DNA of 64,000 bases, taken from Eledone cirrhosa (taxonomy: Eukaryota). Location of the stretch: contig OZ024742.1 of NCBI GenBank assembly GCA_964016885.1, positions 267,902,001-267,966,000 on the forward strand, written 5' to 3'. Of this stretch, positions 23,488-64,000 are shown piece by piece (position 1 is the first letter of the stretch; every line of letters begins with the position of its first letter). The notes beneath the pieces are model-generated. The model had not been told where the DNA came from, ran no database searches, and worked only from the letters and a program-made list of their open reading frames with translations. Position numbers and translations under genes: made by a program.

Positions 23488-23572
23488 CTTCTTCTTCTTC
23501 TTCTTCTTCTTCTTCTTCTTCTTCTTCTTCTTCTTCTTCTTCTTCTTCTTTTTATTATTATTGTTATTGTTA
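23488..23572. repeat. (CTT)n followed by (TTA/TTG)n; left boundary of the retrotransposon array
   Basis: Directly visible. Confidence 0.95.
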
Positions 23573-23987
23573 TTCCTTGAATCTCAGTCATTGATGTTGG
23601 TTAACTGGAAAGTCCGTTGGATTGAATATCAAGCCACTACCTGCAGCCTCAGATATTCAGGACGTATCGGAGGGTTCTTGCTGTTCCAAGCAAGCATGCC
23701 TTTTGAAGCGTTCCAAAAAGCGTGAAGGGGCCGATTTTCTTTAACCATCCCTGGAAACTTTTGGAGATAGTCCCCAGTGCGCCTATGACAATCGGGATCA
23801 CTTTGACTTCATGGCAGTTCCAAATCCTTTTCACCTCCCACTTTAGGTCCTGGTATCGGTTAATTTTCTCCCTCTCCTTCTCTTGCACTCTCGTGTCGAA
23901 CGGGCAGGCCACATCCACAATCAGGCACGATCTTTTTTCTTTGTCCACAACCACCAGGTCAGGTCTATTGTGTTCCAGTTTTTTGTC
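23572..23987 (-). mobile_element. R4/Dong-like element copy 1, 5'-truncated (RLE C-terminus and 3' UTR)
   Basis: RPDLVVVDK...DVACPFD...KINRYQDL...IVIGALG. Flanked by (TTA)n on both sides. Confidence 0.9.
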
Positions 23988-24042
<55 letters not shown>

Positions 24043-24251
24043 GGCGACCTACGTAGTAAATCGTATTATCGTGAGCTCCGCAAAGGTTTGTTATTTCCGT
24101 TTGTTAAAAATTGTCATTTATGGAAAATTTTATTGTTAACTGTTTATAAGCGCACATACATTGTTTTCCGAAAAGGACACCCAAAAAGATTGGGGCCTTG
24201 TGCCCAAAATTTAAACTTTTATTATTATCAAAAAAAATGTCTTTGAAAAAA

Positions 24252-26232
24252 ATGGCTAATTCACCTCTGCACGAAGCAGCTGAAAGCCTTCCTCACTAAT
24301 TAACACTTCACACCGACACCACCATTGTAAATGTTACTACGTTTGCCAACACAAAAAAAATATAAGCACTAGCAATATTTTAAATTTGTCTCAGGTAGAC
24401 ATTCATTTCCCGCCATTACCAATGACTGCAGGTGTTAAAGCCTCCACCACCACCACCACCGCGACAACCACCACCACCACCACCACCGCGACAACAGAAA
24501 CAAAAGAAGAAAAAAATAAATTAACTCGTGATGTCGAAATGAAATCAAGCAAAATGGACTCTTCCCCACCAAAGACGACTGATGTCACCACAACCACAAC
24601 TGAAACTAAAATTAATATTAACGATAGCAACAACAACAACAATGACATTATAACCCCCCCCCCCTCAGTTTCGCCAGAGTAGAAAAACAGTTCGAAGCAT
24701 TTACGGTAACTCAGGAGGATTTAGAAAATGCCAAACAAATGGTAAAGAAAGATGGGTACAGGGTCAGCCCCCCCCACCTAATAAAATGGAGCATCGGCGC
24801 CTATGCACCGTGTCGTATAGAACAATAAATGTAAAATCGCGCCGAGTGGAACGGGCACCCGAGTCCCAAATCCAAAAAGCTTTGGGACATGTGTGGGCAA
24901 GAAAAACACACATCAGACGTGGGCAAAAGTATGGAACCGTGGACGTGTTCTTTGAAACACCAGAGGAGGCTAGAGAACACTCCATGGCCCCATTAAGAAG
25001 TGACGACTTCACACTCGTCCCAAGCTATTGTGGCCAGAGACTCGTAAAGATCAGGGTGACCCACGTTCCACCGGCCATCGAAATTCCCTGGCTAATAGCG
25101 GATGTCCTCGCCGGCATCGAAACCAACACGAAAATAATAGCAATAGCAAAAGAAAAGCAGGAGAACTGGTCCGTATCTGGGATGGAGCTCCTGATCCAAG
25201 CGGACCAAAGAAGCATTGAGGAGATCCCAGAGGTAATAGACCTCACTGACGGCAGCCACCTCACGGTAATTGTCGAGGGCAGAAGACGTAGGTGTATCGT
25301 TTGTGGTGAAGGAACCCACCTAAGGGCTTTCTGCCCTCAGGCTAAAAGGTTGAGGCCACCTCTCCTACCCACCCCAGTGACACAACCATCAACACCACCA
25401 GTAGCAGATATGGCAGCAACAACTGTAGCAGCAACAACAGAAGCAACTATAACAGCAACAACCCCAGCAACAGTAGCAAAACCAACACCACCACCACCAC
25501 CAGCAAAACCAACACCACCACCACCCAACGCTTCAGAACTAGCACCAGCGCCTAAACCAACCACCACGCCACAACCAAAACTAACGGCTGTGGAGGATTA
25601 TCCACTCCCCGGCCTATCACAACTGGAGACAGATTGTGACGACGAGGAGTGGGAAACGATATCCGGAAAAATAAAATGAAACCAAAAAGAAAATATTCTC
25701 TTCCTTCCCCCTCCAAAAACAAAATACAGATGGAAACAAATAAATTAAGAAACAAAAAAGTTAGGACAGATATGCCACCATCCACACCAGCATCACCAAC
25801 CCCATCAACCCAAACACCAACACCATCACCATCATTAACCCCAACACCACCATCACCTACACCACAAAAGTCACCAAAATGCGAAACAGAAACAAATCCA
25901 CAACAAACGCAAACAAAACAAAACAACCAAAACGATACACACTACACAGCATTAAATTTGAGCAACAAGCAATTATTACACTACATCCAACACAACACCA
26001 GCATCACAGAAAAAGACTACACAACAACCCCAAAATTCACACCACCTCCACACATACAAATCACTCGCATCACACAGAAAACGTACATGACACTAAAACA
26101 AAAATTCCCCAAAGACATCGGAGACTTCCGACAAGCACTCTCCAGGAGGATTTAAAGGACATCCTTCCCGAGGAGGCCACAAGCAGTGAAAAGGATGGAA
26201 AAACCGTCCTTCCCCTACGAGAAGTAAGGTAA
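24252..26232 (+). pseudogene. Tx1-A ORF1 (RRM-like region, CCHC zinc knuckle, Pro/Thr-rich tracts), frameshifted
   Basis: CIVCGEGTHLRAFC knuckle and KYGTVDVFFETPEEA. Split over several frames. Confidence 0.8.
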
Positions 26233-26266
26233 GTGGTCTTTCCCATCTTTTCCACTCCTTTTCAAC

Positions 26267-29218
26267 ATGACCTCACTCAGAATAGGCAGCATAAATGCGC
26301 GTGGCTTGGGGTCGTCATGGAAGCAGGGCCACCTGCTCAACGACCTCAGGTCACTAAACATAGATGTAGTGGCCATCAGCGAGACCAGAATCTCCGAAGC
26401 ACAGGCGTTCGCACCGATCTTCGGCGGCTACGATGTGTACGCATCTCCCAGCCGTCCGGGATCGGGGGGGAGGAGTTGCTGTGCTTTTTCGGAGAGGTTT
26501 GGATCTTGCCATACGGGCCATCTTCCTGGACCCAGAAGGTAAGTTGGTGGTGCTGGACGTGACCAGCGGAGACGGCCAAGCTTTCAGGTTAGTGGCCGTC
26601 TATGCCCCGACAGGAGCAGGGCGGCCTGATTTCTTCCGGCGTCTGGAGACCTTTCTTGGAACGTCCCGCTCTTTAGTGTTAGTGGGCGACTGGAACGGGA
26701 TCTTAGATGCACGCTGGGATTGTGTGGGATTAGTGGATAGGGAAGGAGGGTGCAAGAGTCTCACCAACCTCCTCAGTCGTTTTGAACTGTCTGACAGGTA
26801 CCGAATGGATTTCCCGAATGTACCAATGTGGACTTGGACAAATCGCATATGGTCATCCAGATCATATCTAGATAGAGTATTTTGTAGGGAAATAGATAGG
26901 TCTAGCATAGGCTGTCCACAATTCAAGATAGTCAGCTACACGGACCACAAATTCGTGATCTGTGTGCTTGACTTAGATAGGCTTCATAGACGAGGACCCG
27001 GCTACTGGAAGCTAAACGCGTCCTTACCAGCGCGCAAGGCCTACAGAGACCGGATTAGCGAACTAGTTAAGCGGGCGTTGACGGGGGCCATCGTCAACAA
27101 CAAGTGGTGGTTTGCTCTGAAAAGAGCAATTAGAATAGAGTCCATTAGGTTCAGTAAGACTTTAGCAATAGAAAAAAATAGAGCAGAGGGAGAATTAGTT
27201 AGAAAATTAGATGAGGCGCTTAGCAAAGGCATCGCGACCGACGTACTTGCGGCGAAATTGGCCCTTGACCAATTCTTCAATGCAAAGCACGAAGGCTGCG
27301 TTGTCAGAGCTAGGGTGCGTGCTCTCAGACACGAGGGGACGAAAGCCGTTCAATGGGCCCGAGTGGCGGAGGCGCGTCGTGGCAACAAAGCCACGATCCG
27401 GTCTTTGGTGGACCACGACGGGCGCATGCTACTCGATCCCGGGCAAATGTGTGAAGCTTTTCAGCGACACTTCGCTCAACTGTTCGGGGGCAGTGGCGGG
27501 CCGGTCGAGGGATGGACTTTAGTGTCTACCTCAACGGACTGCCGCGGCTTTCGGCCACTGAGGCGGAGTGTTGCGAAAAGCCGATAACAACCGCTGAAGT
27601 ACGGGATGCAATGACTAGTTGCACAAGGGGTAAATCGCCTTGTTTAGATGGTCTGCCCTATGAACTTTACGTACAAATGCCAAACTTGTTCGGAGGCCTC
27701 TTGGCGGACGTCTACTTCAACTGGCAACAGAACGGGAGAATTCCCAGCTCTGTGAGCCGAGGAGCGGTGGCGCTGCTGAGAAAGGATCCGAACAAGGGGG
27801 ATAACATAGATAATTTTAGGCCCATAACTCTGCTAAACACAGGGTTAAAGATTTTGGCCAAGGTGCTAGCAAAGAGGTTGTCGTTGAGGTCTGGTGGGAG
27901 AGGCACAGACATGCGCCATTCCCGACAGATCCATTCACGACAACCTCCACCTCATGCGATACATCGTAGAGAGGGTAGCTAGGGAACCTGGCAGGGGTGG
28001 GTCTTTGATCAATTTAGATCAGTCGAAAGCCTTCGATAGGGTCGATCATCGTTACCTAGCGGCAATCCTGAGGGCGGCTGGCTTTGGGCCCGTCTTCAGA
28101 GGCTGGATCGCTGCCATGCACAGCGACATCTGCTCTGTAGTGAGAGTGAACGGTCACCTTTCGGAACCGTTCAACATCATGCGCTCGGTCCGCCAAGGAT
28201 GTCACATCTCGTCCCTATTGTACGTATTGACTCTCGAGCCATTACTGCACAAACTGGAGACTTTGAGGGGGGTCCCGCGCGAACTAGGATGCGGAAGATC
28301 CGTGTCAGCATATGCCGACGATGTCACCGTAGTGGTGTCGAACGCCAAACACATCGAGGCGATCGGCACTACACTAAGAGAATACGAAGCGGTGACAGGA
28401 GCAATGATCAACCAGGAAAAGTCAGTGGGCCTGCAGCTCGGCACCTGGAGAGGTAGGTCCATGCCGTCCAACAGCGTCGTCGGGCGCTGGACGGACGGAC
28501 CGGTTAAATTGCTAGGGGTCTGGTTCGGTCCAGACCTCCAAACAGCCCTCGACCAATCGGGCAATGTGATCGGTCGAAACTCCACCTTGGCGTTCTATAG
28601 GTGATTAGTGGAGGGGAAGAGCGACGACGTACTTGGAGAAACTCTAGGCGTCGACGAAAATCAACTAGCCAATCTCTTCGGAAGGACTTTCGGGCCGGGG
28701 CCTATGGACAACTTCCAGAAATCCCTGGCCTGGCAGTGCTACCGGGGTGCTTTGCCAGTTCGGGATAAACTTTACAGGCATGGAGGTGCCGTCAGCCGGG
28801 CATGTCCGAGATGCGCACAGGGCGACCAAACCGTCCTGCACGCACTCGTCCAGTGTCCGAGCATTGCTGACTTGTGGGTTTATGTCGAACACCTGCTGTC
28901 ACGTGTAGGACGGATCCAGCTATCAGCTGAGTCCATCGTGAGGATTACTCCGCCCTCTTCCTTTAGCCGGGAAGGGCAGGCAGTTTTATCTGTCTGGTGG
29001 CCATGGCGAAAGAGATAGTATGGTGGACACGTTTGAAAGGGCTGAAGACGAGCACTTACCTCTTCGGTGATGCCCTGATTGACTTTTTCAAATTTCATTT
29101 GAAAAGGAAAATCAGAGTAGAGAGGGAAGTGCTCTCTTCCCAGCATTTTGTTGAAAGATGGGTGAGAGAAGCAAGTATGGCCCGAATGAATGGGCCTTCT
29201 CTGAGTATGTGTCTGTAA
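26267..29218 (+). pseudogene. Tx1-A ORF2: AP endonuclease, reverse transcriptase and C-terminal zinc finger, disrupted
   Basis: SINARGL, SET, YAPT, GDWN, SYLDR, TDH (APE). FRPITLLN, LDQSKAFDRVDH, RQGC, YADD (RT). CPRC...HALVQC (zinc finger). Confidence 0.92.
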
Positions 29219-29461
29219 ATTAAAGGTGGAAAACTGGGAGAGGGCACTTGCCCTGGTGGTCAGGTCCACTGTGGTCTTTTAATGGGCTTTCTCCACAAAT
29301 GTCCCTCGGAAGTCTCCCCCCTATTGGCGAATTTTTCTGTGTTATTTTATTTCATCCTCTGTTTTTTTTACACGCAGAAATGCCCATTTGTACCGTCCCG
29401 TATTGTCCTGTACTGTCCTTAATGTCTACTTTATGTAAACCCTTGTGGTTAATAAAGAAAA

Positions 29462-29492
<31 letters not shown>

Positions 29493-29498
29493 GTTGTT

Positions 29499-29553
29499 AT
29501 TCCTTGAACCTCAGTCATTGATGTTGGTTAACTGGAAAGTCCGTTGGAATGAA
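29499..29553 (-). mobile_element. R4/Dong-like 3' UTR stub (about 55 bp)
   Basis: Matches the 3' end of the other R4-like copies and lies between two (TTA)n tracts. Confidence 0.85.
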
Positions 29554-29788
29554 TTATTATTATGGCCGCACATGTGTGAAGACAGACAAGTCTGTGGGGG
29601 AAAAGGTTCGTAGCTTTAAGCTATTTTAAAGTGTCTTTTTTTTGTATGTTCTTGTCATTAACGAAACTTAAGGTACACATCTTGATTTAAATAGAGGGAT
29701 ACCTCTCAATATTCGGGCTTTAAGCCCGAATATTCAGATTTATTTTTTAAAACTTCGAAAAAAATCGCTTCCCCACCAAAAGAAAATT

Positions 29789-31767
29789 ATGGAAATTTTC
29801 GACCTTGAAACGGTAAACAACGTTCAGGTCAAAAGTTTAAAGGCAGCCACTGCAGATTTCACCACGACTACGACGGCTACAGTCATGCCTGTCATCCACT
29901 CTACTGAATGTGAAGGCAAAACACAAAAGCTACCATCACAACCTTCTGGCATAGCAGCAGTATCATCTGAAAACGACATCACCACCACCGCCACCACCAC
30001 CACCACCACCACCACAACAACAACAACAACTCAGAGAAATAACGACAAAAACACCGACAGCTTCAATGTAAACAAGGATGGCGGTGGCAACAGCAAGAAT
30101 GACAACAACAACAATAAGAGCATCAGAAACACCACATTTGCTGCAGCAGCAGCAGCAAAAACAGAGCGCTTATTGAATATCGATATTGATATTAGCGATA
30201 AAGACGAACAGTTGGCCAAAGCGTGGAGGCTAATTACACGGGAGAAGTCCTGGGCAAACCTGACCATCCCGGACGAGGCAATAGCGGCCATGCAAAGGAG
30301 GACGGTGCTCTTTCGATGTATTTCGGTGCAGACACGAAAAGTGGAACTTGCGAGCCAAGCAGAGGTAGAGGCTGCTTTGGAGTACATCGGAAGTAACATA
30401 GAGTACAAAGCAAGAGGCAAACAGTTCGGTACCATCTCGGTACTGTTCAAATCCGAGGCCCTCGCTATTAAGCACTCGGTGATCCCCTGCAGAACGGAAC
30501 GCATTATCATGCATCCGTCCTATATGGGTAAAAGGTCAGTGAAGGTACGCATTCCCAGCATCCCACCAGGAATGAACATATGGTGGCTGCTGGGATGCGT
30601 AATCGAGGAGAGGACAGACACCACCCTCCTGGACATCAAAAGGACAGAGAGAGAAGACTGGTCCGGAATGGATTTGGAGATTCTTCTCCAAATGAAACCG
30701 GAGGATATAAATAACATCCCAGATTTTAGCCCGCCTGCAGGACGGGACAACAATCCAACTAATGATTGACGGAAGAAGGCCACGCTGCTTCGTTTGCGGG
30801 GAAGCCACGCATCTTCAAGCCTTCTGCCCTCAGCGCAAAAATGCAGGGGGTCGCAAACCTCCTTTGTTGCCAACGCCAGTGTCAGCACGGAAAGCTGCAC
30901 CACCACCACCACCAAAAACAACATCAACAAAAACACGGACACCAACATCAAAAGCAGCCGGATCACCACCAACACAAAAACCAATCCAAGGAGAAAACGG
31001 GGAAAGCTCCCCCCCCCCCAACTATATACATAGACAAAACAAATAAAATAAACGCACACACAGACACAGAGACACTCACAGACACAGACCCTTTGTCTTC
31101 CAGCAGCGAAGATGAAGGAAAACCCAAAAGTGCAAAAAAACAGAGAAGACTCATAAAAAAAAAGCCCCAACAAAACACAGAAACACACACAACAAAAAAT
31201 ACAGACACCACTAACGCAGACACTTCCCCAATAACATCAGCACCATCAGCAACATCGACACCACCTCCACAATCCCCGAAACGCAAACAACCTAAACAAA
31301 CACAAGTACAAATAAACACACAAATACCTGAAATTGCAGACACCACACCTACAACAAACATAGACATACCCGAAACAACACCACCAAAACCATCGCCACC
31401 ACCTTCACCAAAACGAAAACAAATAAAACCACGCCAACAAAATGTTAAAAACTTCGTGCTTGTCAGAAGGGCCAACGATAAACTGATGGCCCTCTTAGCG
31501 CGAAGCGAGGACGTTCAAACAGAGGGGGAGATTTTTGAAATGAGCACATTTTGCGTGCCAGAAGATTTGCTTCTGGTCCGAATGTCACTCAATTCTTTCA
31601 AAGAAATTCGAGAGAGCTTTCCTCAAGACGTGGGAAACCCGAATGTGAAACCCACATCAAGACTTTTAAAGGGGTTCCCAAAAGAAACCCCACCAACCAT
31701 GGAGGTCGAACCACCCGACCTTCACAAGACCCGGGAGGTAAGTAAACCTTCCCTCTCTCTCTCTTAG
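29789..31767 (+). pseudogene. Tx1-B ORF1 (CCHC knuckle), about two frameshifts
   Basis: KQFGTISVLFKSE and CFVCGEATHLQAFC. ORFs 29789-30769, 30762-31046 and the distal part of 30766-31767 join up. Confidence 0.82.
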
Positions 31768-31776
31768 CTTACCAAT

Positions 31777-34700
31777 ATGGCCATATTAAGAGTAGGAAGT
31801 TTAAATGTTCGCGGCCTGGGGTCACCCTGGAAGCAGGGTCGCCTGCTCAACGACCTCCGGTCGCTGGAAATGGATGTGATTGCCGTAAGCGAGACCAGAA
31901 TTTCCGACACGCGTGCACTGGCCCCCATTTTCGACGACTATCAGATCTTCGCATCTGTTAGCAGGCCGGGAATGGGGGGGGGGCAGTGCTGTTTAGGAAA
32001 GGACTGGATCTCGAGGTAAGGTCGATCTTCCGGGACCCGGACGGTAAGTTGGTGGTCTTGGATGTGAGCAGTAGCGAAGGTGGTGCCTTTAGACTGCTGG
32101 CCGTCTACGCCCCTACAGGGGCCGGACGACCTGACTTCTTTAGGCGCCTGGAGACCTTTCTGGGTACGTCTCGCCCTTTACTGTTAGCGAGGGACTGGAA
32201 TGGCATCTTAGACGCACGCTGGGATTGTGTGGGAGTAGCCGATAGGAGCGGGGTGTGCAAAAGCCTCAAGCACCTACTCAGCCAGTTCCAACTGTCTGAC
32301 AGGTATCGACTAGATTTCCCCAATGTGCCAGTATGGACATGGACCAACCGAATGGGGTCATCTAGATCGTATATAGACAGAATCTTCATTAGGAAAATAG
32401 ATAGAAATAGTGTGGGCTGTCCACTTTTTAAAACGGTCGCCTATTCAGATCACAAATTTGTGATCTGTACGGTCGACCTAAATAAAACGCGTAGGTTAGG
32501 ACCGGGTTACTGGAAGCTGAACATGTCATTTCCGGCACGTAAGGCTTACAGGGACCGAGTCAATAAGTTAGTTAAGCAAAAGTTGACAGGAGGGATCATC
32601 AACAACAGATGGTGGGGGGCTCTCAAAAGAGAGATTAGAGTAACTTCGATAGAGTTCAGCAAAGAACTAGCGTTAGAGAAAAATAGAAAGGAGGGGGAGC
32701 TGGTAGATAAGTTAGACGAGGCTATTTGTAGTGGCATCGCAACTGACGTGCTAGCGGCGAGAATGGCATTAGACCATTTCTTCAATGCCAAACACGAAGG
32801 TTGCATTGTCAGAGCTAAGGCGCGTGCGCTGAGAAACGAGGGAACTAAAGCTGTTCGATGGGCCCGCGTGGCGGAGGCGCAGCGTGGTAATAAAACCACA
32901 ATTGGGTCTTTGGCGGACCGAGACGGACACGAGATAAGCGATTCCAGGCGGATGTGTGAGGCCTTTCGCCAGCACTTTGCTCGGTTGTTCAGCGAGAGTG
33001 GCGAGTCAGAGAGAGTAGCGGATTTCAGTCCCTACCTTGACGGCTTGCCGCACATCTCGACGGTCGAGGCTGAGCGCTGCGAAAGGCCGATTACTTCAGC
33101 CGAAATTCAGGGCGCCCTTGTCGGCTGCATGAGGCGCAAGTCACCTGGTTTGGATGGCCTGCCCTACGAGCTTTACGTAAATATGCCAGACTTGTTCTCC
33201 GAACTCCTCGAAGCACTCTACTGTAACTGGCAGCAGAATGGGAGTATTCCCAGTTCTGTGAGCAGGGGAGTGGTGACGCTGATAAGGAAAGACGAGAACA
33301 AGAGGGATACATTAGACAACTTCAGGCCCATAACTCTGCTCAACACAGAGTTTAAGATTTTGGCCAAGGTGTTAGCAAAGAGATTGGCGCTTGTCGTCGA
33401 GGATTTGGTTGGGGAGGCGCAAACTTGCGCAATCCCAGCAGGTCCATACACGACAATCTCCACCTCATGCGATACATCATAGAGAGGGTAGGGTGTAAAC
33501 CTGGCTTCGGTGGGGCACTGATCAATTTAGATCAATCGAAAGCATTCGATAGGGTCGACCATCGGTATCTGGAGTTTGTCCTCAAAGCAGCTGGCTTCGG
33601 CCCTGTCTTTAGAAGCTGGATCGTTGCAATGCACAGCGGCACACGCTCGGTGGTCAAGGTTAATGGCCACCTCTCGGAACCATTTCGGCTCTCCCGATCG
33701 GTCCGTCAAGGGTGCCCTCTCTCTTCCCTTCTGTACGTATTGACTCTCGAGCCATTACTGCGGAAGCTGGAGCTGTTGCAGGGCATCCCGCTCGAAACGG
33801 GACGTGGAAAGGCGGTGTCGGCTTATGCGGACGACATCACCGTGATGGTGTCGAACACCTCAGAAATCGAGGTGGTCGGCACCTTATTGAAGGAATATGA
33901 AAGGTTGACAGGAGCCAAACTTAACCCGGAAAAGTCGGTGGGCTTGCAGCTCGGAACCTGGAGAGGCAAGCCCATGCCGTCCAACAGCGTCGTAGGGCGC
34001 TGGACGGACGGACCAGTAAAGTTGCTCGGGGTTTGGTTCGGACCAGACCTCCAGGTGGAAAAGAATTGGGACGAGGTAACGAGCAGAGTAGCCAGTCTCA
34101 CCCAAAAATGGGTTGGGAGGAAGCTATAACTGAAAGGTCGCGCGGAGGTGGCGAATGCGTACATCGCGTCCGTCATCTATTACCGCCTAACCGTCGTGCC
34201 TTGCCCCCGTCCGCGCCTCGTCAAGTTGGAACGGCTCCTCTTCAAATTCTTGTGGAGGGGACAAGTTCCGTTGGTGAGGCGGTCCATCTGCTGCCAGCAC
34301 CCTCTACACGGAGGGCTGGGCATGCCGTGGCTAATGATGCGCAGACATGCGTTGAGGCTGCGACATCTCCAGATATTCTGCCTCAATGGTGAACAGGTGT
34401 GGTCGCCGTTTATCAGACGGGCCTTTCCGCAGCTCATTTCTTTGACTGAGCTGCAGTCCTGGGTCAAGAAGAGACCGAGACTGGGTGACTGGCACCTGGA
34501 ATGTTGCCAGGCACTCACTGCCCTCTACCAAGCGGGCAATGCGATCAGTGGAACTTCCACTCTCGAGTTCTATAGAGGATTAGTGGTGGGCAAGTGCGAT
34601 GACGCACTTGGAGAAGCTTTGGGCCTCGACGAAGTCGAACTGACCAGTCTGTACCGGAGGACTTTTGAGCCGGGGACGATGGACAATTTCCAGAAATCCC

Positions 34701-35204
34701 TCGCTTGGCAGTGCTACCGGGGGGGGGGGGGGGGACACTGCCGGTTCGGGATAAACTCAACAGGCACGAAAGTGCTGTCAGACGGATCTGCCCAAGATGC
34801 GCACAGAACGACGAAACCGTTCTGCACGCACTTGTCCAATGTCCGTGCATTACTGACTTGTGGAGTTATGTCGAACAGCTACTGTCGCGTGTGGAAAGAA
34901 TCCGGTTATCGGCCGAGTCCATAGTGAAGATCGAGCCGCCAGCTTCCTTAGGTCAGGAAGAGCAGGACATTTTCCTCTGTCTGGTGGCAGTTGCGAAAGA
35001 GATTATATGGTGGACAAGGTTGAAAGGACTAAAGACAGACACTTTACTCTTCGGCCAATCACTCATCAACTTCTTCAAGTTTCACCTGGAAAGGAGGGTG
35101 AGGGTGGAGAGAGAAGTGCTGCCCCCAGTACATTTGCTAAAAGGTGGGTGAATGTGGCGAGAATGGCTCGTGTGAATGGGCCTACTCTGACCATGCGCCT
35201 ATAG
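31777..35204 (+). pseudogene. Tx1-B ORF2 APE-RT-zinc finger, few lesions
   Basis: SLNVRGL, YAPT, SYIDR, SDH, FRPITLLN, AFDRVDH, RQGCPLS, YADD, CPRC...ETVLHALVQC. Frameshifts lie partly at G/T homopolymers. Stop codon at 34127. Confidence 0.92.
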
Positions 35205-35505
35205 GCTGGCTAACTTGAGGAGAGGGGTGCTCTCCTGGGTGCCCTAGAAGCGCAGGATGGATCAGGATTGGTGGGGTACCCGAATCACCACAGGGTCGTC
35301 CACCCCCTATCGGGGAATTTATTTTGTTATATTTTGCATAGTTTATTTTATATTTTTATATTTTCATTGTTAAATTAGTTTTGCCATTGTGCACTTTTAC
35401 TCGACCTTATTGTAAACCCCCACTGTCCCTGTCTTTGTATTGTCCCCTACATGTCTGCCCTTGTGGCTAATAAATGAAATCATTATTATTATTATTATTA
35501 TTATT

Positions 35506-38500: not shown

Positions 38501-38846
38501 TCTCTGTTCCAGGTATTATTAATCTCAGTATTCAGATCATTGTCTGCTTCGGGTGGTTCCTCCGTTCTCTCGACCTCTTCACCTTCATTTCCCACTGGCT
38601 CGTTTGCCTGGCATACTCCATCCTCCATCTCCAAGCTAATCTCTCTGCTCAGTTCCTCCAGTTCCAGCTCGCTTAACCACCCATTAGTTCTTATTACCTG
38701 AGCCTGCCCGGCCAATATTTGTTCATCTAATTTAAATAGACCAATCTCGTTCCAGATGTTATGCATCCGTCTCCTATAGCCCCTCTCCTTGGGGTTACTT
38801 TTCGGGTAACATTGCATAACAGTTCAATTCAATTTTTTCGTCCAGA
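35506..38846 (-). mobile_element. R4/Dong-like element copy 2, near-complete ORF but missing the 5' end
   Basis: N-terminal MQCY..SNPKERGYRRRM..W..EQILAGQ domain. RT motifs YRPITCL, DYSKAFD, GIFQGDSLSP, FMDD. CCHC CRIC..ETMAHIVSEC. RLE RPD..D..K..Y. (TAA)n tail. Confidence 0.92.
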
Positions 38847-38891
<45 letters not shown>

Positions 38892-41718: not shown

Positions 41719-41785
<67 letters not shown>

Positions 41786-44940: not shown

Positions 44941-44954
44941 TAATAATAATAATA

Positions 44955-45143: not shown

Positions 45144-45144
45144 G

Positions 45145-47380: not shown

Positions 47381-47382
47381 TA

Positions 47383-47472: not shown

Positions 47473-47506
47473 ATTATTATTATTATTATTATTATTATTG
47501 TTGTTA

Positions 47507-48059: not shown

Positions 48060-48123
<64 letters not shown>

Positions 48124-53200: not shown

Positions 53201-53690
53201 AGTTTTTATCTGTCTGGTGGCCATGGCGAAAGAGATAGTATGGTGGACACGTTTGAAAGGGCTGAAGACGAGCACTTACCTCTTCGGTGATGCCCTGATT
53301 GACTTTTTCAAATTTCATTTGAAAAGGAAAATCAGAGTAGAGAGGGAAGTGCTCTCTTCCCAGCATTTTGTTGAAAGATGGGTGAGTGAAGCAAGAATGG
53401 CCCGAGTGAATGGGCCTACTCTGAGTATATATTTGTAAATTAAAGGTGGAAAACTTGGAGAGGGCACTTGCCTTGGTGGTCAGGGTCACTGTGGCCTTTT
53501 ACTGGGATTTCTTCACAAATGTCCCTCCGATGTCTCCCCCCTATTGGGGAATTTTTCATTGTTATTTTTTTGTTACATCCTCTGTTTTTTGTTTTTTACA
53601 CGCAGAAATGCCCATTTGTACCGTACTGTATTGCTCTGCACTGTCCTTAATGTCTACTTTATGTAAACCCTTGTGGTTAATAAAGAAATC
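50238..53690 (+). mobile_element. Tx1-A ORF2 and 3' UTR (5' part missing), joined to the subfamily C ORF1
   Basis: Very similar to 26430-29462 and includes the segment deleted in copy 1. YADD at about 52071. Stop codon at 53438. Confidence 0.9.
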
Positions 53691-53698
53691 ATTATTTC

Positions 53699-56600
53699 GG
53701 CCTGTTCGGACGCCTTTTGCTCGCGGTAAGTCGCTTTATTTGTCTGTTAAAATTTGTTGTTGTTAAATATTTATTGTTGTATAAGCCCTTAGACTTTGCC
53801 CTGTGAAGGGGAAAGTAAAATATTTATGCCTGTTGCCCCAAATATTTGAACATTTTACTTTAAAAAAAATAAATTGTTTTAAAAAAAACATGGCGAGCCA
53901 CTCCCCACCCCAGCAATATGTCTGCTGTTATCTGACAACGGCGTAAAAGTTGGGTGGAGAGTTACACACATTGTTACAACAGACACCACCACAAACAACG
54001 TGAACAAAGACAACACTGAGAACACTAATTTCGAAAGATTTACCACACAAACTACAACAATAACAGCGTCAACAGAAATACAGACAACAGAAAAAATGAC
54101 AACAAATGCAACAACGATATTAACACCACTAACAAGAACATAAACAACGACAACACCAACAGCAACAATAAGAATTGCACCGAAAACAACAACAACGGTG
54201 GCACCAAAAACACAACCATCTACAACAGAGATTAAAGCAACAACACTGTTCGTAGCAGTAGCAACAGCAACAACACCAACAGGAAGACCAGTAGCGGCAG
54301 CAATAATGGTACCGCTGAAAAAGGGGCCACTTCTTTCGCAGGTAGAAACAGTGCTAGTCACGGAGGAGGAGAAGGTAGTCGCAAGAGCCATGGTGTCGAG
54401 AAACGACAACAGAGTTTCTCTGAAATTTCCACCCGATTTATTCAAAGACCAGAAACTGCGCACAGTGATTTACCGCACCGTAAGCGAAATGTCGCATCGG
54501 GTGGAGAGAGCCACGGAGGCTCAAATGCAAAAGGCCTTGGGGTGCGTATGGGCGCGCAAAACCCACATTACCCGAGGCAAAAAGTACGGCACAGTAGACG
54601 TGCTTTTCGCCACCCACCAAAGAGGCTAATTCTCACACTTTGGAAACTCTAAACAGTGAGGAGATAGTCTTGGTGCCCTCCTACTGCGGGCAGAAAATTG
54701 TGAGGGGGAAAGTGACCCATGTCCCGCCCGACGTGCCCATACCTTGACTGGCCGCGTCTGTACTGGCTAGAATCGAGGAGAAGACCACCATACTGCAAAT
54801 ACAGAGAATGGGAAGAGAGAACTGGTCAGGAATAGCCATGAAAATGCTAATACAGACTGACCAGGAGTGCATAGACGCCATCCCAGACCTCATAGACCTC
54901 GAGGAAGGTCTCCATCTCCCTATAAGCGTGGAAGGAAGTCGCCTAACATGCTATCTCTGTGGGCAGAAGGGTCAATTCAGGGCCTTCTGCCCGCAGAAGA
55001 CATCCAAGAAGAGCCCCCTCCTTCCGACGCCTGATCCGCTGCTACCAAGAGCAAAGCAGGGAACAGAGGCAGAAGACCTCTTCATGGTGAGTAAGATGGC
55101 AACGTCCGTGGCACCCGTACCAAGGCCACGGACAACTAAAGCAGCGGCAGCAATGGCGGCAACACCAACTGTCGCAGTAGCTACACCGGCGGTAAAATCG
55201 CCGGAGCGTACTCCACTATCACCACCAACAGCTGTGGAGCTCATGCCCCTCCCGGACGCCACATGGTCCGACATGGAGTGTGAGGCGGGAGGGAGGTGGC
55301 AAACGGTCTGCCACAAACAATAAATCAGAAAAAAAACCCTTAGCTTCACCCTACAAAAAGCAGACAAAGAGGGTAAATGTTACAAAGGGACTTGCAGCAT
55401 ACCACCACCATTAATATCACCACCACAAGCATCACCGCCAACAACAATCACACCACCACCAGCATCACCAAAAATACCAACATCGCAAACACAACAAAAC
55501 ACACACACCCAACAGCAACAACAAGAAAACAGCAACAAAATCGCCCCTTCCCCCGAAAAGTACACAGCCATAAACATGGCAAATAAAGAACTCCTAAAAC
55601 ACATGAAGCAGCACGCAGACATCACAGAAATAATACTACTACACCACACCAACACCAATAACTCTCCCGACAAACATAAGCATCATTGAAATCTCAATAG
55701 AACATTACAAACTTTTAAAGCAAAAATTCCCCAACGCAGTTGGAGATTTCAGAGGGTCGGTTACCAAGAGGATATACATCGACATCCTCTTGGAAACACC
55801 CATGGCCAGCCAAACGGACGGTTCTACTGTCCTTCTACCACACGATCAAGGTAAGTGATCCTTACTCACTTAAGCCGTTTCTCATCCAACATGGCCGTAC
55901 TTAGAATAAGCAGTATAAATGTACGTGGCCTGGGGTCATCCTGGAAGCAGGGTCACCTGCTCAACGACAACAGGTCACTAAACATAGATGTGGTGGCCAT
56001 CAGCGAGACCAGAATCTCCGAAGCACGAGCCTTCGCACATATCTTCGGGGGCTACGATGTATACGCATCTCCCAGGCGTCAAGGATCGGGGGGGGGGGGG
56101 TTGTCGTGCTTTTTTGGAGAGGCTTGGATCTTACCATACGGGCCATCTTCCCTCACCCAGAATGTAAGTCGGTGCTGCTGGACGTGTCCGGCAGCGAAGG
56201 CAATGCTTTCAAGCTAGTAGCCGTCTACGCCCCAACAGGGGCAGGACGGCCAGATTTCTTCAGGCGTCTAGAGAACTTTCTTGGAACGTCCCGCTCTTTA
56301 GTGTTAGTGAGCGACTGGAACGGTATTTTATATGCACGCTGGGATTATGTGGGGCAAATAGACAGGGCAGGAGAGTGTAAAAGCCTCGCAAAACTGCTCA
56401 GACGTTTGAACTGTCTGAGAGGTATAGACTGGATTATCTGAATGTGCTAATGTGGACATGGGCAAACCACATCGAGTCATCCAGATCGTATTTAGATAGG
56501 GTATTATGCAGGGAAACAGATAAGGCTAATGTAGGTTGTCCACAAGTCAAAGTAGTCGATTACACGGACGACACATTTGTGATGTGTGAAGTTGACTTAG

Positions 56601-59552
56601 ATAGACTCCATAGGCAAGGGCGCGGCTACTGGAAGATGAATGCGCGCTTCCCGGAGTGCAAAGCTTACAGACACCGGATTAGCGAAATAGTTAAGCGTGC
56701 GTTGACGGGTGGGATCGTCAAAAACAGGTGGTGGTTTACCCTGAAAAGGGCTATTAGTGCAGAATCGATAATGTTTAGCAAAGGAATGGTGATAGAAGAA
56801 AATAGAGTAGAGGGAGAGTTAGTTAAAAATCTAGAAGAGGCGTTTAGGACAGGCATTGCAACCGACATGCTTGCGGCGAGATTGGCACTCGACCAATTCT
56901 TCAACGCAAAGCATGAAGGCTGCGTTGTTAGAGCTAGAGCGCGTGCTCTAGGACACGAGGGGACGAAAGCCATTCAATGGGCCTGGCTGTTGGAGGCGCG
57001 ACGTGGCAACAAGTCCGCAATTCGGTCTTTGCCTGATCAAAACGGGCGCATGTTGCTCGAACCCGAGCAGATGTGTCCGGCTTTTCAACAACCCTTTGCT
57101 CAATTGTTCGGGAGCGGCGGCGGGCCGGATCGGAGTATGGACTTCTGTACATACCTAGACAGATTCCCGCGGCTCTCGACGACAGCAGCTCAGTGCTGCG
57201 AAAAGCCGATAGCAGTAGGGGAAATACAGGGCGCGATGTCTGACTGCACGAGGGGTAAATCGCCATGTTTGGATGGTCTGCCCTACGAGCTTGATGCGTA
57301 TATTCCAGACTTGTTCGGCGACCTCTTGGCAGATGTCTACTGCAACTGGCAGCAAAAAGGGAGCATTCCCAGTTTTGTGAGCCGGGGAGCGGAGGCGCTG
57401 CTGAGAAAAGACCCGTACAAGGGATGCGTTATAAGGGACCCGTACATAACTCTGCTAAACGCAGAGTTTAAGATTTTGGCCAAGGTGTTAGCAAAGAGAC
57501 TGGCGCTTGTCGGTGATCTGGCGGGAGAGAGGCAGACATGCACCATCCCGGACAGATTCATCCACGACAACCTCCATCTCATGCGATACATCATAATTAG
57601 AGTGGTTAAGGAACCTGGCACGGGTGGGGCCCTGATCAACTTGGATCAATCTAAAGCATTTGATAGATTCGACCATCGGTACCTGGTTGCAGTCCTCGAG
57701 GCGGCTGGATTCGGCACTGTTTTTAGGGGCTGGATCGCTGCGATGCATAGCGACATCTGCTCGATTGTGAGGGAGAATGGTCACCTGTCGCAGCCTTTCA
57801 GCATCATGCGCTCGGTCGCCAGGGTTGCCGCCTCTCGTATCTCTTATACGTACTGGCCCCCGAGCCGTTACTGCACAAATTGGAGTCGATGAGGGGGTCC
57901 CACGCGAAATGGGATGCGGGAGATCCGTGTCAGCTTACGCCGACGACGTCACCAAACACGTCCAGATGCTCGGCACCGCTCTCAACGAATACGAAGCGGT
58001 GATAGGAGCAAAGATAAACCAGGAAAAGTCCCTGGGCTTGCATCTCGGCATCTGGAAAATCAAGTCCATGCCGTCCGACAGCGTCGTGGGGCGCTGGACG
58101 GACGGACTGGTTAAATTTTTCGGGGTCTGGTTCGGTCCGGACCTCCAGATGGAGAAATACTGGAGCGAGGTGACGAGCAGGGTGGCCTCTCTAACCCAGA
58201 TATGGGCCGAGAGGAGGCTGTCTCTGAAATGTCGGCGGAGGTGGCGAATGCGTACATAGCGTCCGTCATCTGCTACCGCCTGACCATCTTACCTTGCCCC
58301 CGCCCAACTCTGACCAATATGGAGAACCTTCTCTTCCGCTTTTTGTGGAAGCGACGTGCTTCCATGGTCAGACGATCCATTTGCTGTCAACACCCGTTGG
58401 GTGGAGGACTAGTCATATCGTGGCTGATGATGCGACAACATGCGCTGAGGCTGCGACATCTCTGGTGCTTCTTTGACGGTGAACAGGTGTGGTCGCCGTT
58501 CACCAGACGCCCTCTTCAACAGCTCGTCTCCTTGACGGAGCTGCAGTCTTGGATCAGGAAAAGACCGAGGGATAGCGCTTGGAAGCTGGAATGTTTCCAA
58601 GCGCTCACCGCCCTCTACCGGCTGGGCACTAGTATCGGTGGAACATCCACCTCGGCGTTCTATAGAGTACTACTTGAGCGAAAGTGTGACGACGTTCTTG
58701 GAGAGACCCCGGGCGTTGAAGACGATCAGCTGTTCGCTCTCTTCAAGAGAACTTCAGACCGAGGCCTATGGATGAATTCCAGAAATCCTTGGCCTGGCAC
58801 TGCTAACGGGTAGCGTTGCCGATTCAGGATAAGCTCTACAGGCACGGAGGTGTTGTCAGCGGAGCCTCTCCGAGATGCGCACAGAGCGACGAAACTGTTG
58901 TGCACGCACTCGTTCCGTGTCCGAGCATTGCTGACTTGTGGAGCTATGTTGAACATTTGCTGTCACGTGTAGGACGGATCCGGTTATCGACTGAGTCTAT
59001 TGTGCAGATAGACCCGCCATCCTCCTTTATAGAGGATGAAGGGCAGGCAGTTTTCATCTGCCTGTTGACCATGGCGAAAGCGATTGTGTGGTGGACAAGG
59101 TTGAAAAGGTTGAAGACGGACACTTTCCTCTTCGGCCAATCCTAGATTAACTTTTTTAAGTTTCACTTGAAGAGGAAAATCAGGGTGGAGAGGCAAGTGC
59201 TGTCTTCTAGTAAGTTTTTTGAAAGGTGAGTGAAAGTGGCGAGCCTGGTCCGAGTGATCGGGCCCGCTCTGAGTATGCGCCTGTAGACTGAGGAGTGGGA
59301 AAAGTGAGAGAGGGAGCTTGCCCTGGTCGTCAGGGTGGCCGTGGTCTTTTATGTGGTTTTCACCACGAGTGACCCTCGGAGGTTTCCCCCCTTCTTGGTG
59401 AATTTTTGTTGTTTAGATTTTTTTTGGATTTCTAGCCCGATTTTGTTATAACCTGTTTACACGACCAAAACCCACTTTCTATCGTCCTGTACTGTTCTGT
59501 GCTGTCTCTATTGTTTTTCTTCGTGTCAGCTTTTGTGGCCAATAAAGAAACC
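53699..59552 (+). mobile_element. Tx1 subfamily D, full length, degraded
   Basis: ORF1 from ATG 53890 (CYLCGQKGQFRAFC). ORF2 55891-59286 (SINVRGL, AFDRFDH, YADD). Ends TTGTGGCCAATAAAGAAACC+(ATT)n. Confidence 0.9.
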
Positions 59553-59576
59553 ATTATTATTATTATTATTATTATT

Positions 59577-62500
59577 GGCTGTCACTCTGTGAATTCGTGC
59601 TTTTGGAGCGCCGCAAAATTAGGATATTTTCTGTTTATTTTCTTTGATAATGATTGTTGCATTCTTTGAAAATGGTTATAATACTTCCCTCTTTGCCCTA
59701 TGAAAGAGTAACTGTGTAATAGTTGGGCCTTTTGGCCCAAGTATTTGAAATTAGAAAAAAAATAACATCGCTGAGCCACGTCCAAATTTGACAAAAAATA
59801 AACATGGCTGAGTCATCCATAAACCACCACCACCCACCCCAAACTTTGTGTCTGCTGCCGTGTGACATCGACCTAAACGTTGAGAGGAAGAAATCGGCAA
59901 ACACATTGATTAACACTACAAACAAATATACCAGCACCACCACAAACAGCATGAACAACTGCAGCAGTAACATCAATAGTGAGAACAATAACCTTAAAAA
60001 AGACGATAACACCAACCACAGCAGTAATAGCGACAACCAAAGACAGACAACATAAATAATAACAACAAAAACAACAACGCAATTAACACCACTAACAAGA
60101 ACTTAGAAAGAGACAGCACCAACACAACAATACCAACTGCATCGAGAATAACAACAGCGGCACCAAAATTATAACCAACTGCAACGGTGATAACAGCAAC
60201 AACTCCAACAAGAACAACGACAACAACAACAACTACAACACCAACAACACCACCAACACCACCAACTACAAGAACACTTTCGCTGCGGCAGCAACCAAAA
60301 AGAAGCCATGCTTCACTTTGGAACTTCTCGAATAAAGATGAAAAGTTGGCCCAGGCCTGGAAGCTCATCAAGCAAGAGGAGACCTGGGCCAATTTAACTG
60401 TCCCAGTAGAAGCTATTGAACAGTGCATTACAGTTGCATCTCAGCAGAAACAATGAGTGCAGCTTTAATTGCACAGGCAGATGTCGAAGCCGCGCTGAGG
60501 TGCATCAGAGATGACACTGAATAAATAGCGAGGGGCAGACAATACGGCACCATTTCGGTGCTGTTTAAGTCAGAAGCCCTCGCTATGAGATATGCAATAA
60601 CCCCTTGCAAAACCAGCAAGATTATAATGTAGACCTCCCACATGGGAAAAAGAACAGGTCGTCTCCGCATTCCCAGGATCCGAACAGTACTTGACATGTG
60701 GTGGCTCCTGGGATGTATGATTGAGGAGGGGACGGATACCGTCCCGATAGAGATTACAAGGACAGCTAGAGAGGACAGGTCCGGGGTTGACCTGGAGATA
60801 ATTCTCCAGATCAGGCCGCAGAATGTAAAAAAATATCCCGGACCACATCCGTCTTCAGAACAGGACGGTTATTCACATCATGACTGAGAGGAAAAGGTCG
60901 CATTGTTTCGTTTGCGGTCAACACACTGATTTGCGAGCCTTCTGCCCGCAACTGCTGAAATATGCAAGGGGTCGTAGGAATCCACCACTTCCGACGCCGG
61001 GGCGAGGACCACCACCAACATCAGCACCGACAAAACACCAGCAACAACACCAATAGAAGTACCACCACCAATATTGAACACCCAGGGTGGAAATGAGGAA
61101 AGTTTTCAAATTCACCCTCCCCCCAACATACACACATGAATAAAAACATAAATACACACACAGATACAGACACATTTACAGACACAGGCACCTCATCTTC
61201 CAGTAGAGATGATTAGGGAAAAACCAAATCATCAAAAATACACAAAAGAAAACTCACAAAGCACAAAAACACCCACAATAATAAATGCAGACACCACCCA
61301 AGAAAACATCTCCTCAACAACACCAACATCAACACAACCAACACCATCACCATCAACAGAATTCCAAAAACTTAAACAATCTAAACAGACGCAATAACAA
61401 ATACACACACAAACATCTGAAACCACAGACACCGCGCTCACAACAGAAACAGACACAACCGAAACAACACCATGAAATGCATAACACCACATCCACGCAA
61501 ACAAATAAAATCGCTCCAACAATACAGAAAACTTCGTGCTTGTCAGGAGAGCCAACAAATAATTGATGGCTCTCGTAGCACGAAGTAAAGAAATACAAAC
61601 AAAGGTGGACATTTTTAAATCGAGCATATTTCGCGTGCCGGAATTATTTCTGGTGCGAATGTCGCTTGATTTTTATAAAGGGATTCGAGACAGCTTTCCT
61701 CGGGACGTGGAATCACCGAACGTAAAACCCACATCAAGACTTTTAAAGGTGTTTCAAAAAGAAACCCCACCAACAAGTGCCCGGGAGGTAAATAAACCTT
61801 TCCTCCCTCATTTAGCCTGCCAACATGGTCATATTAAGAGTAGGAAGTTTAAATGTTCGGGGGCTGGGATCATCCTGGAAGCAGGCTCACCTGCTCAACG
61901 ACCTCAGGTCTCTAGAAATGGATGTAATTGTCGTCAGTGAGACCATGATTTCCGACAGGCACGCACTAGCCCCCATTTTCGACGACTATCAGATCTTCGC
62001 ATCTGATAGTCAGCCGAGAATGGTGGATGGGATGGCAGTGCTGTTTAGGAAAGGCCTGGATCTCGAGGTAAGGTCGATCTTCCGGCACCAGGACGGTAAG
62101 TTGGTGGTCCTGGACGTGATCAATAGCGAAGCTGGCGTCTTTAGACAAGTGGCCGTCTACGCCCCTACAGGGCCAGGACGACCGGACATCGTTAGACGCC
62201 TGGAAGCTTTTCTGGGTACTTCTCGCCATTTACTGTTATTGGGTGACTGGAACAGCATCTTAGAGGCAGGCTGTGAGTGTGTGGGGCTCCGCATTAGGAG
62301 CGGGGGTGCAAAAGCCTCAAGTGCCTGATCAGGCAGTTCCAACTGTCTGACAGGTACCAACTAGATTTCCCTAATGCGCCAGTGTGGACCTGGACAAACC
62401 GTTTAGATCGTATTTAGATATATTTCTAAATAGATTAGTGGATAAGGATAGTGTAGGGTGTCCACAATTATATACGGTCGCCTATTGAGACCACAAGTTT

Positions 62501-64000
62501 CTGATCTGTATGGTCGATCTAGATAAGATGCGTAGGTGAGGACCTGGTTAGTGGAAGCTGAACATGTCATTTCCAGCACGTAAGGCTTACAGGGACTGGG
62601 TCAACAATTTAGTTTTGCAAAAGTTGACAGCGGGGGTTGTCAACAACCGATGGTGTGCGGGCTCTCTCGAGAGAGATTAGAGTAATGTCGATAGGGTTTA
62701 GCAAAGAGGTAGGGTTAGAGAAAAATAGAAAGGAGTTGGAGCTGTTAGATAGGTTAGACGATGCTATTTGTAGTGGCATTACAACTGACATGTTAGCGGC
62801 GAGAATGGCATTAGATCATTTCTTCAATGCGAAACACGAAGGTTGCATTGTCAGAGCTAAGGCGCGTGCCTGAGAAATGAGGGAACCAAAGCTGTTCGAT
62901 GCGCCCGCGTGGCGGAGGCACAGAGTAGTGACAAAAACACAATTCAGTCTTTGACGGGCCGAGATGTACACGAGCTCAATGATTCCACCCTGATGTGTGA
63001 GGCCTTTCGCCAGCATTTTGCTCGGTTGTTCGGGGGAGGAAGTGGTGGGTCAGAGATGGTGGCGTACCTCGATGGCTTGCCGCAACTCTCGACGACCGAC
63101 GTTCAGCGCTGCGAAAGGCCGATAACTTCAGCCGAAATTCAGGATGCCTTGTCGGCTACACGATGCGCATTTCACCCGATTTGGATGGTCTGCCCTACGA
63201 GCTTTACGTAAATATGCCAGACTTGTTCTCCGATCTCCTCGAAGCGCTCTACTGCAACTGGCACCAGAACGGGAGTATTCCCAGTACTGTGAGCCGGGGA
63301 GTAGTGACGAGAAGAAGAGGGACACATTAGATAATTTCAGGGCCATAATTCTGCTCAACACAGAGGTTAAGATGTTGGCCAAGGTGTTAGCGAAGAGCTT
63401 CGCGCTTGTTGTCGAGAATGTGGTTGGTGAGGCTCAAACTTGCGCAATCCCGACCAGGTTCATACACGACAATCTCCTCCTCATGCGATACATCATAGAG
63501 AGAGTACGGTGTAAAGCTGGCTTCGGTGGGGATCTGATCAATTTAGATTAATCGAAAGCATTCGATAGGGTCGACCATCGGTACCTGGAGGTTGTCCTCA
63601 AGGCAACTGTCTTCGGCCCGTCTTCAGAAGCTGGATCGCTGCAATGCACAGCGGCATCTACTCGGTGGTCAAAGTTAATAGCCACCTCTAGGAACCGTTT
63701 CAGATCTCCCGATCAGTCCGTCAAGGGTGCCCTCTCACCCCCCTTCTGTATGTATTGATTCTCGAGCCTTTACTGCGGAAGATGGAGCTGTTGCAGGACA
63801 TCCTGCTCGAATCGGGACGCGGAAAGGCTGTTACGGATTATGCGGAGGACATCACCGTGAAGGTGACGGACAACTCGGAAATCGAGGTGGTCGGTAACTT
63901 ATTGGAGGAATACGAAAGGATGACGGGAGCAAAACTTAACTGGGAAAAGTCGGTGGGATTGCAACTCGGCACATGGAAAGGCAAGTCCATGCCGTCCAAC
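59577..64000 (+). mobile_element. Tx1 subfamily E (B-like), degraded, runs off the window
   Basis: Starts GGCTGTC after (TTA)n. ORF1 ATG 59804 (KDEKLAQAWKLI, like B). ORF2 ATG 61825 (SLNVRGL). RT motifs continue to the end of the window. Confidence 0.88.

Follow-up and report, generated by a model that had tools for sequence, protein, structure and literature searches.

Tx1-like and R4/Dong-like LINEs share (TTA)n tracts in opposite orientations in the genome of Eledone cirrhosa

We analysed a window of 64,000 nucleotides (nt) of the Eledone cirrhosa genome (positions 267,902,001-267,966,000 of contig C3, 378.9 Mb long, in a 3.0-Gb assembly) in which two kinds of long interspersed element (LINE) are joined by runs of TTA. 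Tx1-like LINEs (Tx, five families, TxA to TxE), which encode an apurinic/apyrimidinic endonuclease (APE), are interleaved with R4/Dong-like LINEs (R4), which encode a restriction-like endonuclease (RLE). Both groups keep a strict polarity relative to (TTA)n, have tracts at both ends, occur as dispersed copies and are of mixed ages. Such arrays have probably arisen through independent insertions of the two groups, opposite to each other in (TTA)n, by endonucleases that would nick opposite strands, with each insertion turning one tract into two.

Polarity at TTA tracts across the genome

An (AAT)n tail was present at the 3' end in 30 of 30 R4 loci, and ATT-type units in 30 of 30 TxA loci. These tails belong to the element, and it is therefore the 5' side that tests target use. 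There, at least two TTA units stood just upstream of the 5' end in 30/30 TxA, 24/25 TxB, 25/25 TxC, 22/25 TxD and 22/25 TxE copies (sets of best matches per family, each with the window's own copy included). By chance, at least two units occur in 2% of random 33-nt windows (400/20,000), and the association with tracts in the window is far beyond this level. Genome-wide, TTATTATT precedes 1,584 of 1,687 exact TxA 5' motifs (94%), on both strands equally. Full-length R4 5' motifs had AATAAT within 4 nt in 64 of the first 100 listed on contig C1 (466 motifs in all), and some of the misses are likely to be duplications of the 5' tip. Several full-length R4 copies (L026, L085, L115 and L116) carry a short tandem duplication of this tip, and at L120/L143 a mirrored (TAA)n(TTA)n tract lies ahead of the R4 5' end.

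We surveyed 551 distinct tracts of at least three units, drawn from seeded regions (824 kb), random regions (410 kb) and loci returned by searches (735 kb). Ends whose 5' side faced a tract obeyed the polarity in 149/149 Tx, 102/103 R4 and 46/46 short interspersed element (SINE) cases; on all sides of tracts of at least four units it was kept in 235/235, 217/221 and 75/77 cases, respectively. Two elements across one tract were opposite if one was Tx and the other R4 (83/83; the number of tail-to-tail junctions of this kind rests on sampled loci), and in the same orientation if both were Tx (37/37) or both R4 (37/38). The division of the two (TTA)n strands between an APE and an RLE clade, which an initial annotation had proposed from the window alone, thus extends genome-wide, with opposite-strand nicking as its presumed cause. 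Random flanks or orientation, the outcome which that annotation had set against its own proposal, were absent.

The upstream tract is target and not element, because copies truncated at the 5' side begin in the expected tract as well (30/44 R4 and 7/12 Tx, against the 2% background). We had considered (TTA)n as a part of the Tx 5' end, and ruled this out on the same ground and because tract lengths vary.

Unselected samples were consistent with this, though small. Of 41 random 10-kb regions, one contained tract-associated copies of both clades, with the expected polarity. Of about 14 long tracts first listed by a pure-repeat search, seven, on contig C1, were annotated, and all seven touch a Tx or R4 LINE. 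The genome has 141,743 overlapping matches to (TTA)12, or about 20,000 tracts if those first listed are typical. Median tract length was 3, 8 and 12 units with 0, 1 and 2 LINE neighbours, a relation in which cause and effect are not separated. Full-length Tx 5' ends abutted another element in 95 of 128 cases (31 Tx tails, 23 SINE tails and 41 R4 5' sides).

Organization of the array in the window

The TTA-linked array begins at 23552 and ends beyond the window, at about 65,396. Within the window we counted 13 LINE pieces, two SINEs and one old relic, where about 14 LINE pieces lying nearly back to back had first been noted. ATT/TTA runs are present at 23552, 23988, 29463, 29553, 35482, 38847, 41719, 47473, 48060 and 59553, in agreement with the initial annotation for these ten; the run it placed at 53691 has two units only, and its left edge, 23488-23549, is (TCT)n. 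Every Tx-type piece lies on the plus strand and every R4-type piece outside 44.3-47.4 kb on the minus strand, as first described. The division into an APE and an RLE clade also stands, the Tx side being itself composed of five families. The array had been taken as one unit of more than 40 kb. Its middle is occupied by a 3.1-kb block (44322-47382) made up of 2.25 kb of old tract-less R4-like DNA and of three features in reversed polarity (an R4 piece, a tract and a SINE), and there are therefore two same-polarity runs, of 20.8 and 18.0 kb, and not one continuous 40-kb array. By comparison with natural full-length copies located elsewhere in the genome, the left run reads R4 (-), TxA (+), R4 tip (-), TxB (+), R4 (-), R4 (-) and a second TxA (+), which contains a SINE and lacks its 3' part; the right run, after the block, reads Tx tip (+), R4 (-), TxC (+), TxD (+) and TxE (+). 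The features are as follows.

23487..23549, no strand: left-edge (TCT)n microsatellite that probably belonged to the original compound repeat
23552..23572, +: degenerate (TTA)n tract, tail of the first R4 copy
23573..23987, -: R4/Dong-like LINE, 5'-truncated, 415 bp
23988..24041, +: (TTA)18 tract
24042..29462, +: TxA, Tx1-like LINE with intact ends and an internal deletion of about 460 bp; APE and reverse transcriptase (RT) domains
29463..29492, +: (ATT)10 tract where a Tx and an R4 element meet by their tails
29500..29554, -: R4 3' tip, 55 bp
29563..35481, +: TxB, full-length Tx1-like LINE with broken frames
35482..35508, +: (ATT)9 tract
35507..38846, -: R4/Dong-like LINE, 5'-truncated (3.3 kb), RT domain
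38847..38888, +: (ATT)14 tract
38901..41718, -: R4/Dong-like LINE, 5'-truncated (2.8 kb); RLE motifs CCHC, RHD, PD-X12-D and K..Y
41719..41784, +: (TAT)22 tract
41785..44324, +: second TxA copy without its 3' part, breaking inside the APE coding region
43687..43794, +: 5'-truncated SINE inside TxA, with an 8-nt target duplication starting ATT
44322..44938, +: 3' end of an R4 subfamily (86% identical to the main family), reversed polarity; tract-less junction to TxA
44939..44956, -: (AAT)6 tract common to the plus-strand R4 piece and the minus-strand SINE
44957..45134, -: SINE with Tx-like 3' stem-loop and ATT tail
45135..47382, +: old single-copy, tract-less R4-like relic, 32% amino acid identity to young R4; spacer between the runs
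47383..47472, +: Tx 3' tip, 90 bp; left junction bridged by short-read contigs
47473..47499, +: (ATT)9 tract
47507..48059, -: R4/Dong-like LINE, 5'-truncated, 553 bp
48060..48122, +: (TAT)21 tract
48123..53690, +: TxC, Tx1-like LINE with its own 5' untranslated region (UTR) and open reading frame (ORF) 1 and a TxA-type ORF2; internal deletion of about 500 bp
53698..59552, +: TxD, older full-length Tx1-like LINE; just two ATT units upstream
59553..59576, +: (ATT)8 tract
59577..64000, +: TxE, oldest Tx1-like LINE, running on to about 65,396, with a decayed ATT/ACT tract at its end

The junctions at 44322 and 47383 are without a tract, and the 2.25-kb R4-like spacer is single-copy by short-read contig depth. 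We ruled out that the whole 44.3-50.3 kb block is a single insertion into one TxA, since the two TxA-type ends overlap instead of abutting. The break of the second TxA (44324) and the ends of the TxC deletion (50235-50270) lie close to one and the same G-rich site of the APE coding sequence, no more than a few dozen bases away. Along the right-hand run (47383-65396) age increases from left to right, through TxC, TxD and TxE, which suggests layered growth toward the 5' side. No window copy has a complete ORF2, the longest stop-free stretch being 506 amino acids.

Rfam gave no match at gathering score in window positions 18000-64000, and a sequencing-run search with the left flank returned no RNA dataset among the matches listed. 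Outside the array, 3793-4256 and 4480-4943 form an inverted repeat with arms of 464 bp that are 95% identical and stand 223 bp apart, possibly a miniature inverted-repeat transposable element or a foldback element.

Identity of the two groups of LINEs

Elements of the Tx1 clade have two ORFs, ORF1 with a CCHC knuckle and ORF2 with APE, RT and a C-terminal zinc motif. ORF2 of the plus-strand elements contains Exo_endo_phos (APE), RVT_1 (RT) and zf-RVT domains, and a near-intact TxA copy has a 530-amino-acid ORF1 frame with the knuckle CX2CX4HX4C. TxA ORF2 scored 310 bits against Xenopus TX1 ORF2 and 158 bits against human L1 ORF2, a comparison of scores only. The nearest named protein to Tx ORF2 comes from Argonauta hians (69% identical), and TxA grouped with an Argonauta protein in a quick RT tree that held one named Tx1, no L1 outgroup and no named R4. 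We call these elements Tx1-like on the basis of their domains and the score comparison.

DNA identity between most pairs of the five Tx families is 68-79%. The exception is TxA and TxC, which have a common ORF2 (96% identical); despite this, their 5' UTR and ORF1 (compared between 48123-53690 and 24042-29462) are unrelated, a swap of the 5' module. The endonuclease hairpin loop is nearly identical across TxA-TxD. A 5' UTR hairpin about 150-180 nt in is common to TxA (24186-24222), TxB, TxD and TxE, and in TxA, where its loop is the CTTGT also found in the 3' stem-loop, it is similar to the SINE 3' end. The immediate Tx flank is TTA and not the (TC)n or (TTC)n targeted by Kibi and Koshi; TTC runs occur only farther out, at some loci. 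Tx1 families have been regarded as target-specific when more than 20% of their flanks are of one sequence type (PMC4494074). The corresponding share is 94% for TxA genome-wide and 88-100% for the four other families in samples.

Elements of the R4/Dong clade have a single ORF, in which the RT precedes CCHC, RHD and a PD-(D/E)xK endonuclease, and no APE. The R4-type elements agree with this, with an RT followed by CCHC, RHD and PD-X12-D motifs (38977-39570 in the window) and no APE. Their proteins align to R2 proteins by sequence and by fold, and R2 provides the best structural matches (Z 31.6, root-mean-square deviation 4.1, 505 aligned). A second RLE family, found elsewhere than in the window (for example L266:2085-6190 on the minus strand of contig C2), has a stop-free ORF of 1,216 amino acids with RLE motifs, no blastn match to the main R4 family and the same TAA polarity. 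Unlike R2, the R4/Dong clade is without N-terminal C2H2 zinc fingers, and we found none in either RLE family or in 57 long homologues. The clade also has an N-terminal Myb-like domain. Residues 58-128 of the R4-type protein form a confidently predicted four-helix domain; folded alone, this region was poorly predicted (predicted local distance difference test 57), with no Myb protein among the matches listed. The homologues retrieved included no named R4 or Dong protein, and an ESM Atlas search gave unnamed RT clusters only. The label R4/Dong-like comes from the motif order, the match to R2 in sequence and fold and the missing zinc fingers.

Mixed arrays elsewhere and independence of the insertions

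Of the ten best non-self TxA 5' matches, two are LINEs standing alone. Four of the others belong to arrays about 30, 32, 27 and 26 kb long and four to shorter ones of 8-18 kb; even copies that stand alone in ordinary DNA lie in tracts. About 235 kb past the window array, contig C3 carries a 35-kb array (268201400-268236800) with a mid-array switch of polarity like that of the window's reversed block. TxA copies cluster on contig C1, where 14 of 99 gaps are below 20 kb (2.3 expected), 12 of the 14 between copies on the same strand. R4 5' ends lie within 15 kb of TxA in 5 of 21 cases (1.05 expected, p 0.003), all opposite; extending the distance to 25 kb adds a sixth, on the same strand. A geometric size model fitted to ten hand-counted arrays gives, roughly, a mean of about three elements and at least seven elements in about one array in eight. 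At distances above 20 kb, neighbouring TxA copies on contig C1 (1-94 Mb) are on the same strand in 55 of 85 cases, hinting at a long-range orientation bias.

The locus is ordinary within its genome, one of many mixed arrays. The suggestion that it is special is not supported, since comparable or longer same-polarity arrays are common. Its position is interstitial (267.9 Mb along the 378.9-Mb contig), which rules out a subtelomeric location. The telomeric unit TTAGGG, looked for as (TTAGGG)3, was absent from the window and a further 10 kb.

Within the window, the R4 copies on the minus strand have five distinct 5' ends (lengths 415, 55, 3340, 2818 and 553 bp) and are 95.6-98% identical to one another, matching the dispersed copies (95.4-98%). 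The five Tx families differ in age, their closest dispersed relatives being 98, 98, 95, 87 and 85% identical. Because the copies differ in truncation and in age, they are independent insertions, as the initial annotation had argued for R4. Neighbour order varies between arrays; the succession TxA then TxC recurs in two others.

Short-read contigs from one sample, possibly the source of the assembly itself, bridge the 47,383 junction in two sequencing runs. Over 41790-54100, short-read contigs and restriction-site-associated DNA reads yielded no spanning piece and noisy joints, and none of the pieces listed either bridged the 44,322 junction or spoke against it.

A probable SINE partner and a proposed mechanism

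A 178-bp SINE ends at its 3' side like Tx, with a CTTGT loop (CUUGU in RNA) on a stem followed by ATT. The stem pairs are swapped (AACC/GGTT or GCC/GGC in Tx, GGC/GCC in the SINE), and the three inner pairs are preserved in 69-71 of 72 ends from Tx elements and in 120-122 of 128 SINE-like ones. A shared 3' end is the rule that links SINEs to the enzymes of partner LINEs, and because this stem-loop is shared, the SINE is likely to be moved by Tx protein. Outside tracts, where its duplications are readable, non-simple target duplications of 8-19 nt (median 14) flank 32 of 75 SINE copies, against 2.1 in shuffles, and 22 of the 32 start with ATTA. Two SINEs, at 43687-43794 of the window and 119880868-119880937 of contig C2, lie at the same TxA ORF1 nucleotide with different 5' truncations and with duplications of 8 and 13-14 nt, marking a repeated ATTA hotspot.

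From these sequences we infer a strand assignment, nick positions and a course of self-seeding. Since the SINE duplications mostly start with ATTA, the standard target-primed model would place the first Tx nick on the TAA strand: the APE would nick there, and the 3' end in TAAT would prime on the (AUU)n tail of the RNA. The second nick would fall 8-19 nt away, to judge from the SINE duplications. R4 is tailed with (AAT)n and so would have to prime from the TTA strand, which its RLE would nick for priming on an (AAU)n tail. Tail and duplication together would leave a tract on each side, making two tracts out of one. Targets would for this reason multiply near existing insertions, and arrays would grow by preferential attachment over long time. 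The SINE, likely borrowing the Tx enzyme, would meanwhile drop new ATT tails genome-wide and so seed sites. Self-seeding, already put forward in the initial annotation, is supported by the clustering of copies, by tract lengths that rise with LINE neighbours and by 5' ends that abut other elements.

Alternative explanations

Several observations weigh against independent insertion by two strand-specific endonucleases. The junctions were counted mostly in regions picked by matches to these elements, not at random. The full-length R4 5' junctions are less clean than those of Tx (64/100), and among truncated copies 5 of 12 Tx and 14 of 44 R4 are without the expected tract, 4 of the 14 reflecting a deletion in the library copy. 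Of 18 tracts of at least four units in the random regions (410 kb), 11 had no element on either side. Because bare ATTA suffices for the SINE to insert, long tracts may not be a requirement of the APE alone. The LINEs' own target duplications are unreadable inside a pure tract, no empty allele was seen, and self-seeding offers no explanation for the long-range strand bias of TxA (55/85). The bare-ATTA landings of a SINE likely moved by Tx, the many short tracts that remain empty, a regional bias beyond self-seeding and the transposable element (TE) hotspots of Octopus vulgaris (PMC13282606) would all suit an account in which the endonucleases have no more than a weak A/T preference, pairing of the RNA tail with the nicked strand sets the polarity, and arrays persist through purging elsewhere or in permissive regions. 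Yet purging could not by itself produce a placement as tight as that of the TxA 5' ends, 94% of which follow TTATTATT, each of the first seven long tracts on contig C1 touches a Tx or R4 LINE, and even solitary copies in ordinary DNA sit in tracts. We consider this account unlikely, although tail pairing is compatible with insertion by opposite-strand endonucleases and may share the work.

Selection could instead have kept the arrays as functional loci, PIWI-interacting RNA (piRNA) sources or safe harbours, with each clade serving as antisense template for the other. Their geometry does make any read-through transcript sense for one clade and antisense for the other, and repeat targeting is regarded as a low-harm strategy (PMC4640811). 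The arrays are many and dispersed, however, with sizes graded from solitary copies up, as under a neutral birth process (by the rough geometric fit), and no feature marks the window locus as special, which makes this reading very improbable. Tandem duplication or co-retrotransposition of multi-element blocks could account for the recurrence of TxA then TxC in two other arrays, but is already largely refuted by the five R4 truncation points, the five Tx families of different age, the differing element order between arrays and R4 copies no closer to one another than to dispersed ones; we give it hardly any credence. Just as little can be said for an assembly artefact joined at TTA tracts. The junctions are simple repeats between high-copy elements, and no short-read contig spans 41790-54100, yet the same rule holds at hundreds of loci with unique flanks, the copies carry private differences, the contigs from that one sample, which may have been the source of the assembly, give the spacer a single-copy depth and bridge 47,383 twice, and an assembler would not impose a clade-specific polarity.

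Relation to known systems

Dong targets TAA in silkworm, mosquito and snail (Bombyx Dong, DongAg and DongBg; PMC3812793, where it is filed under APE-type elements) and has been placed in the R4 lineage (PMC3774820). Like Dong, the R4 elements described here are RLE-type LINEs in TAA microsatellites, here with sense-strand (TAA)n at both ends; unlike Dong, they comprise two deeply diverged RLE families and are interleaved with an APE clade. Dong has a self-cleaving ribozyme like that of hepatitis delta virus at its 5' end (PMC3774820); the one full-length R4 5' end that we compared with the standard Rfam ribozyme models gave no match.

Tx1 families target (TC)n (Kibi), (TTC)n (Koshi) and (TTCC)n/(TTTC)n (crocodilian groups; PMC4494074). 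Like these, the Tx elements described here are APE LINEs with two ORFs that occupy a microsatellite, and they have a probable partner SINE, a pairing known from Tx1-Mar/SINEU (PMC4494074). They differ in their (TTA)n target, which is not among the targets found in the accessible text of PMC4494074, in that at least five families share it, and in their invertebrate host. TRAS and SART occupy Bombyx telomeric repeats in opposite orientations and form arrays (PMC10088271), and thus also represent two groups in one short repeat; both belong to the R1 clade and are telomeric, whereas here the endonucleases are unrelated and the arrays interstitial and numerous. Keno (Tx1, APE) and Utopia (RLE) converge on one target class, as Tx and R4 do, in that both target U2 small nuclear RNA genes (PMC4494074, PMC4640811). 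Their insertion destroys the gene target; here insertion likely regenerates it.

In Octopus vulgaris, recent activity of Dong-R4 and L1-Tx1 and 288 TE hotspots are reported (PMC13282606); the two classes are described as active or expanded in octopus (PMC13282606, PMC8967140). The accessible text of PMC13282606 contains no analysis of target sites, orientation or nesting, and that of PMC8967140 none of targets. The corresponding parts of PMC8869645 and PMC4758252 held nothing further of relevance. In the literature searched, which did not include Repbase, so that prior description is possible, we found no TTA-targeting Tx1 lineage, no strand-partitioned sharing of a microsatellite by APE and RLE elements and no two-clade array.

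Implications

It is conceivable, though doubtful, that a TTA-specific Tx1 lineage, two Dong-like RLE lineages and a tract-seeding SINE form a three-partner self-propagating system, in which fixed-polarity arrays would act as small-RNA sources, cross-clade antisense would couple the expansions of the partners, and octopod TE hotspots would be built as a result. Target regeneration is a candidate mechanism for such hotspots. The findings would add (TTA)n to the specificities of the Tx1 clade, one that we did not find in print (Repbase lying outside the search). They also offer a natural pair of unrelated endonucleases on opposite strands of one 3-nt repeat, which may be useful for separating the parts played by nuclease and by RNA-tail pairing in targeting, and they yield a concrete rule, open to testing, on the insertion sites of two major active LINE classes in a large genome of cephalopod type.

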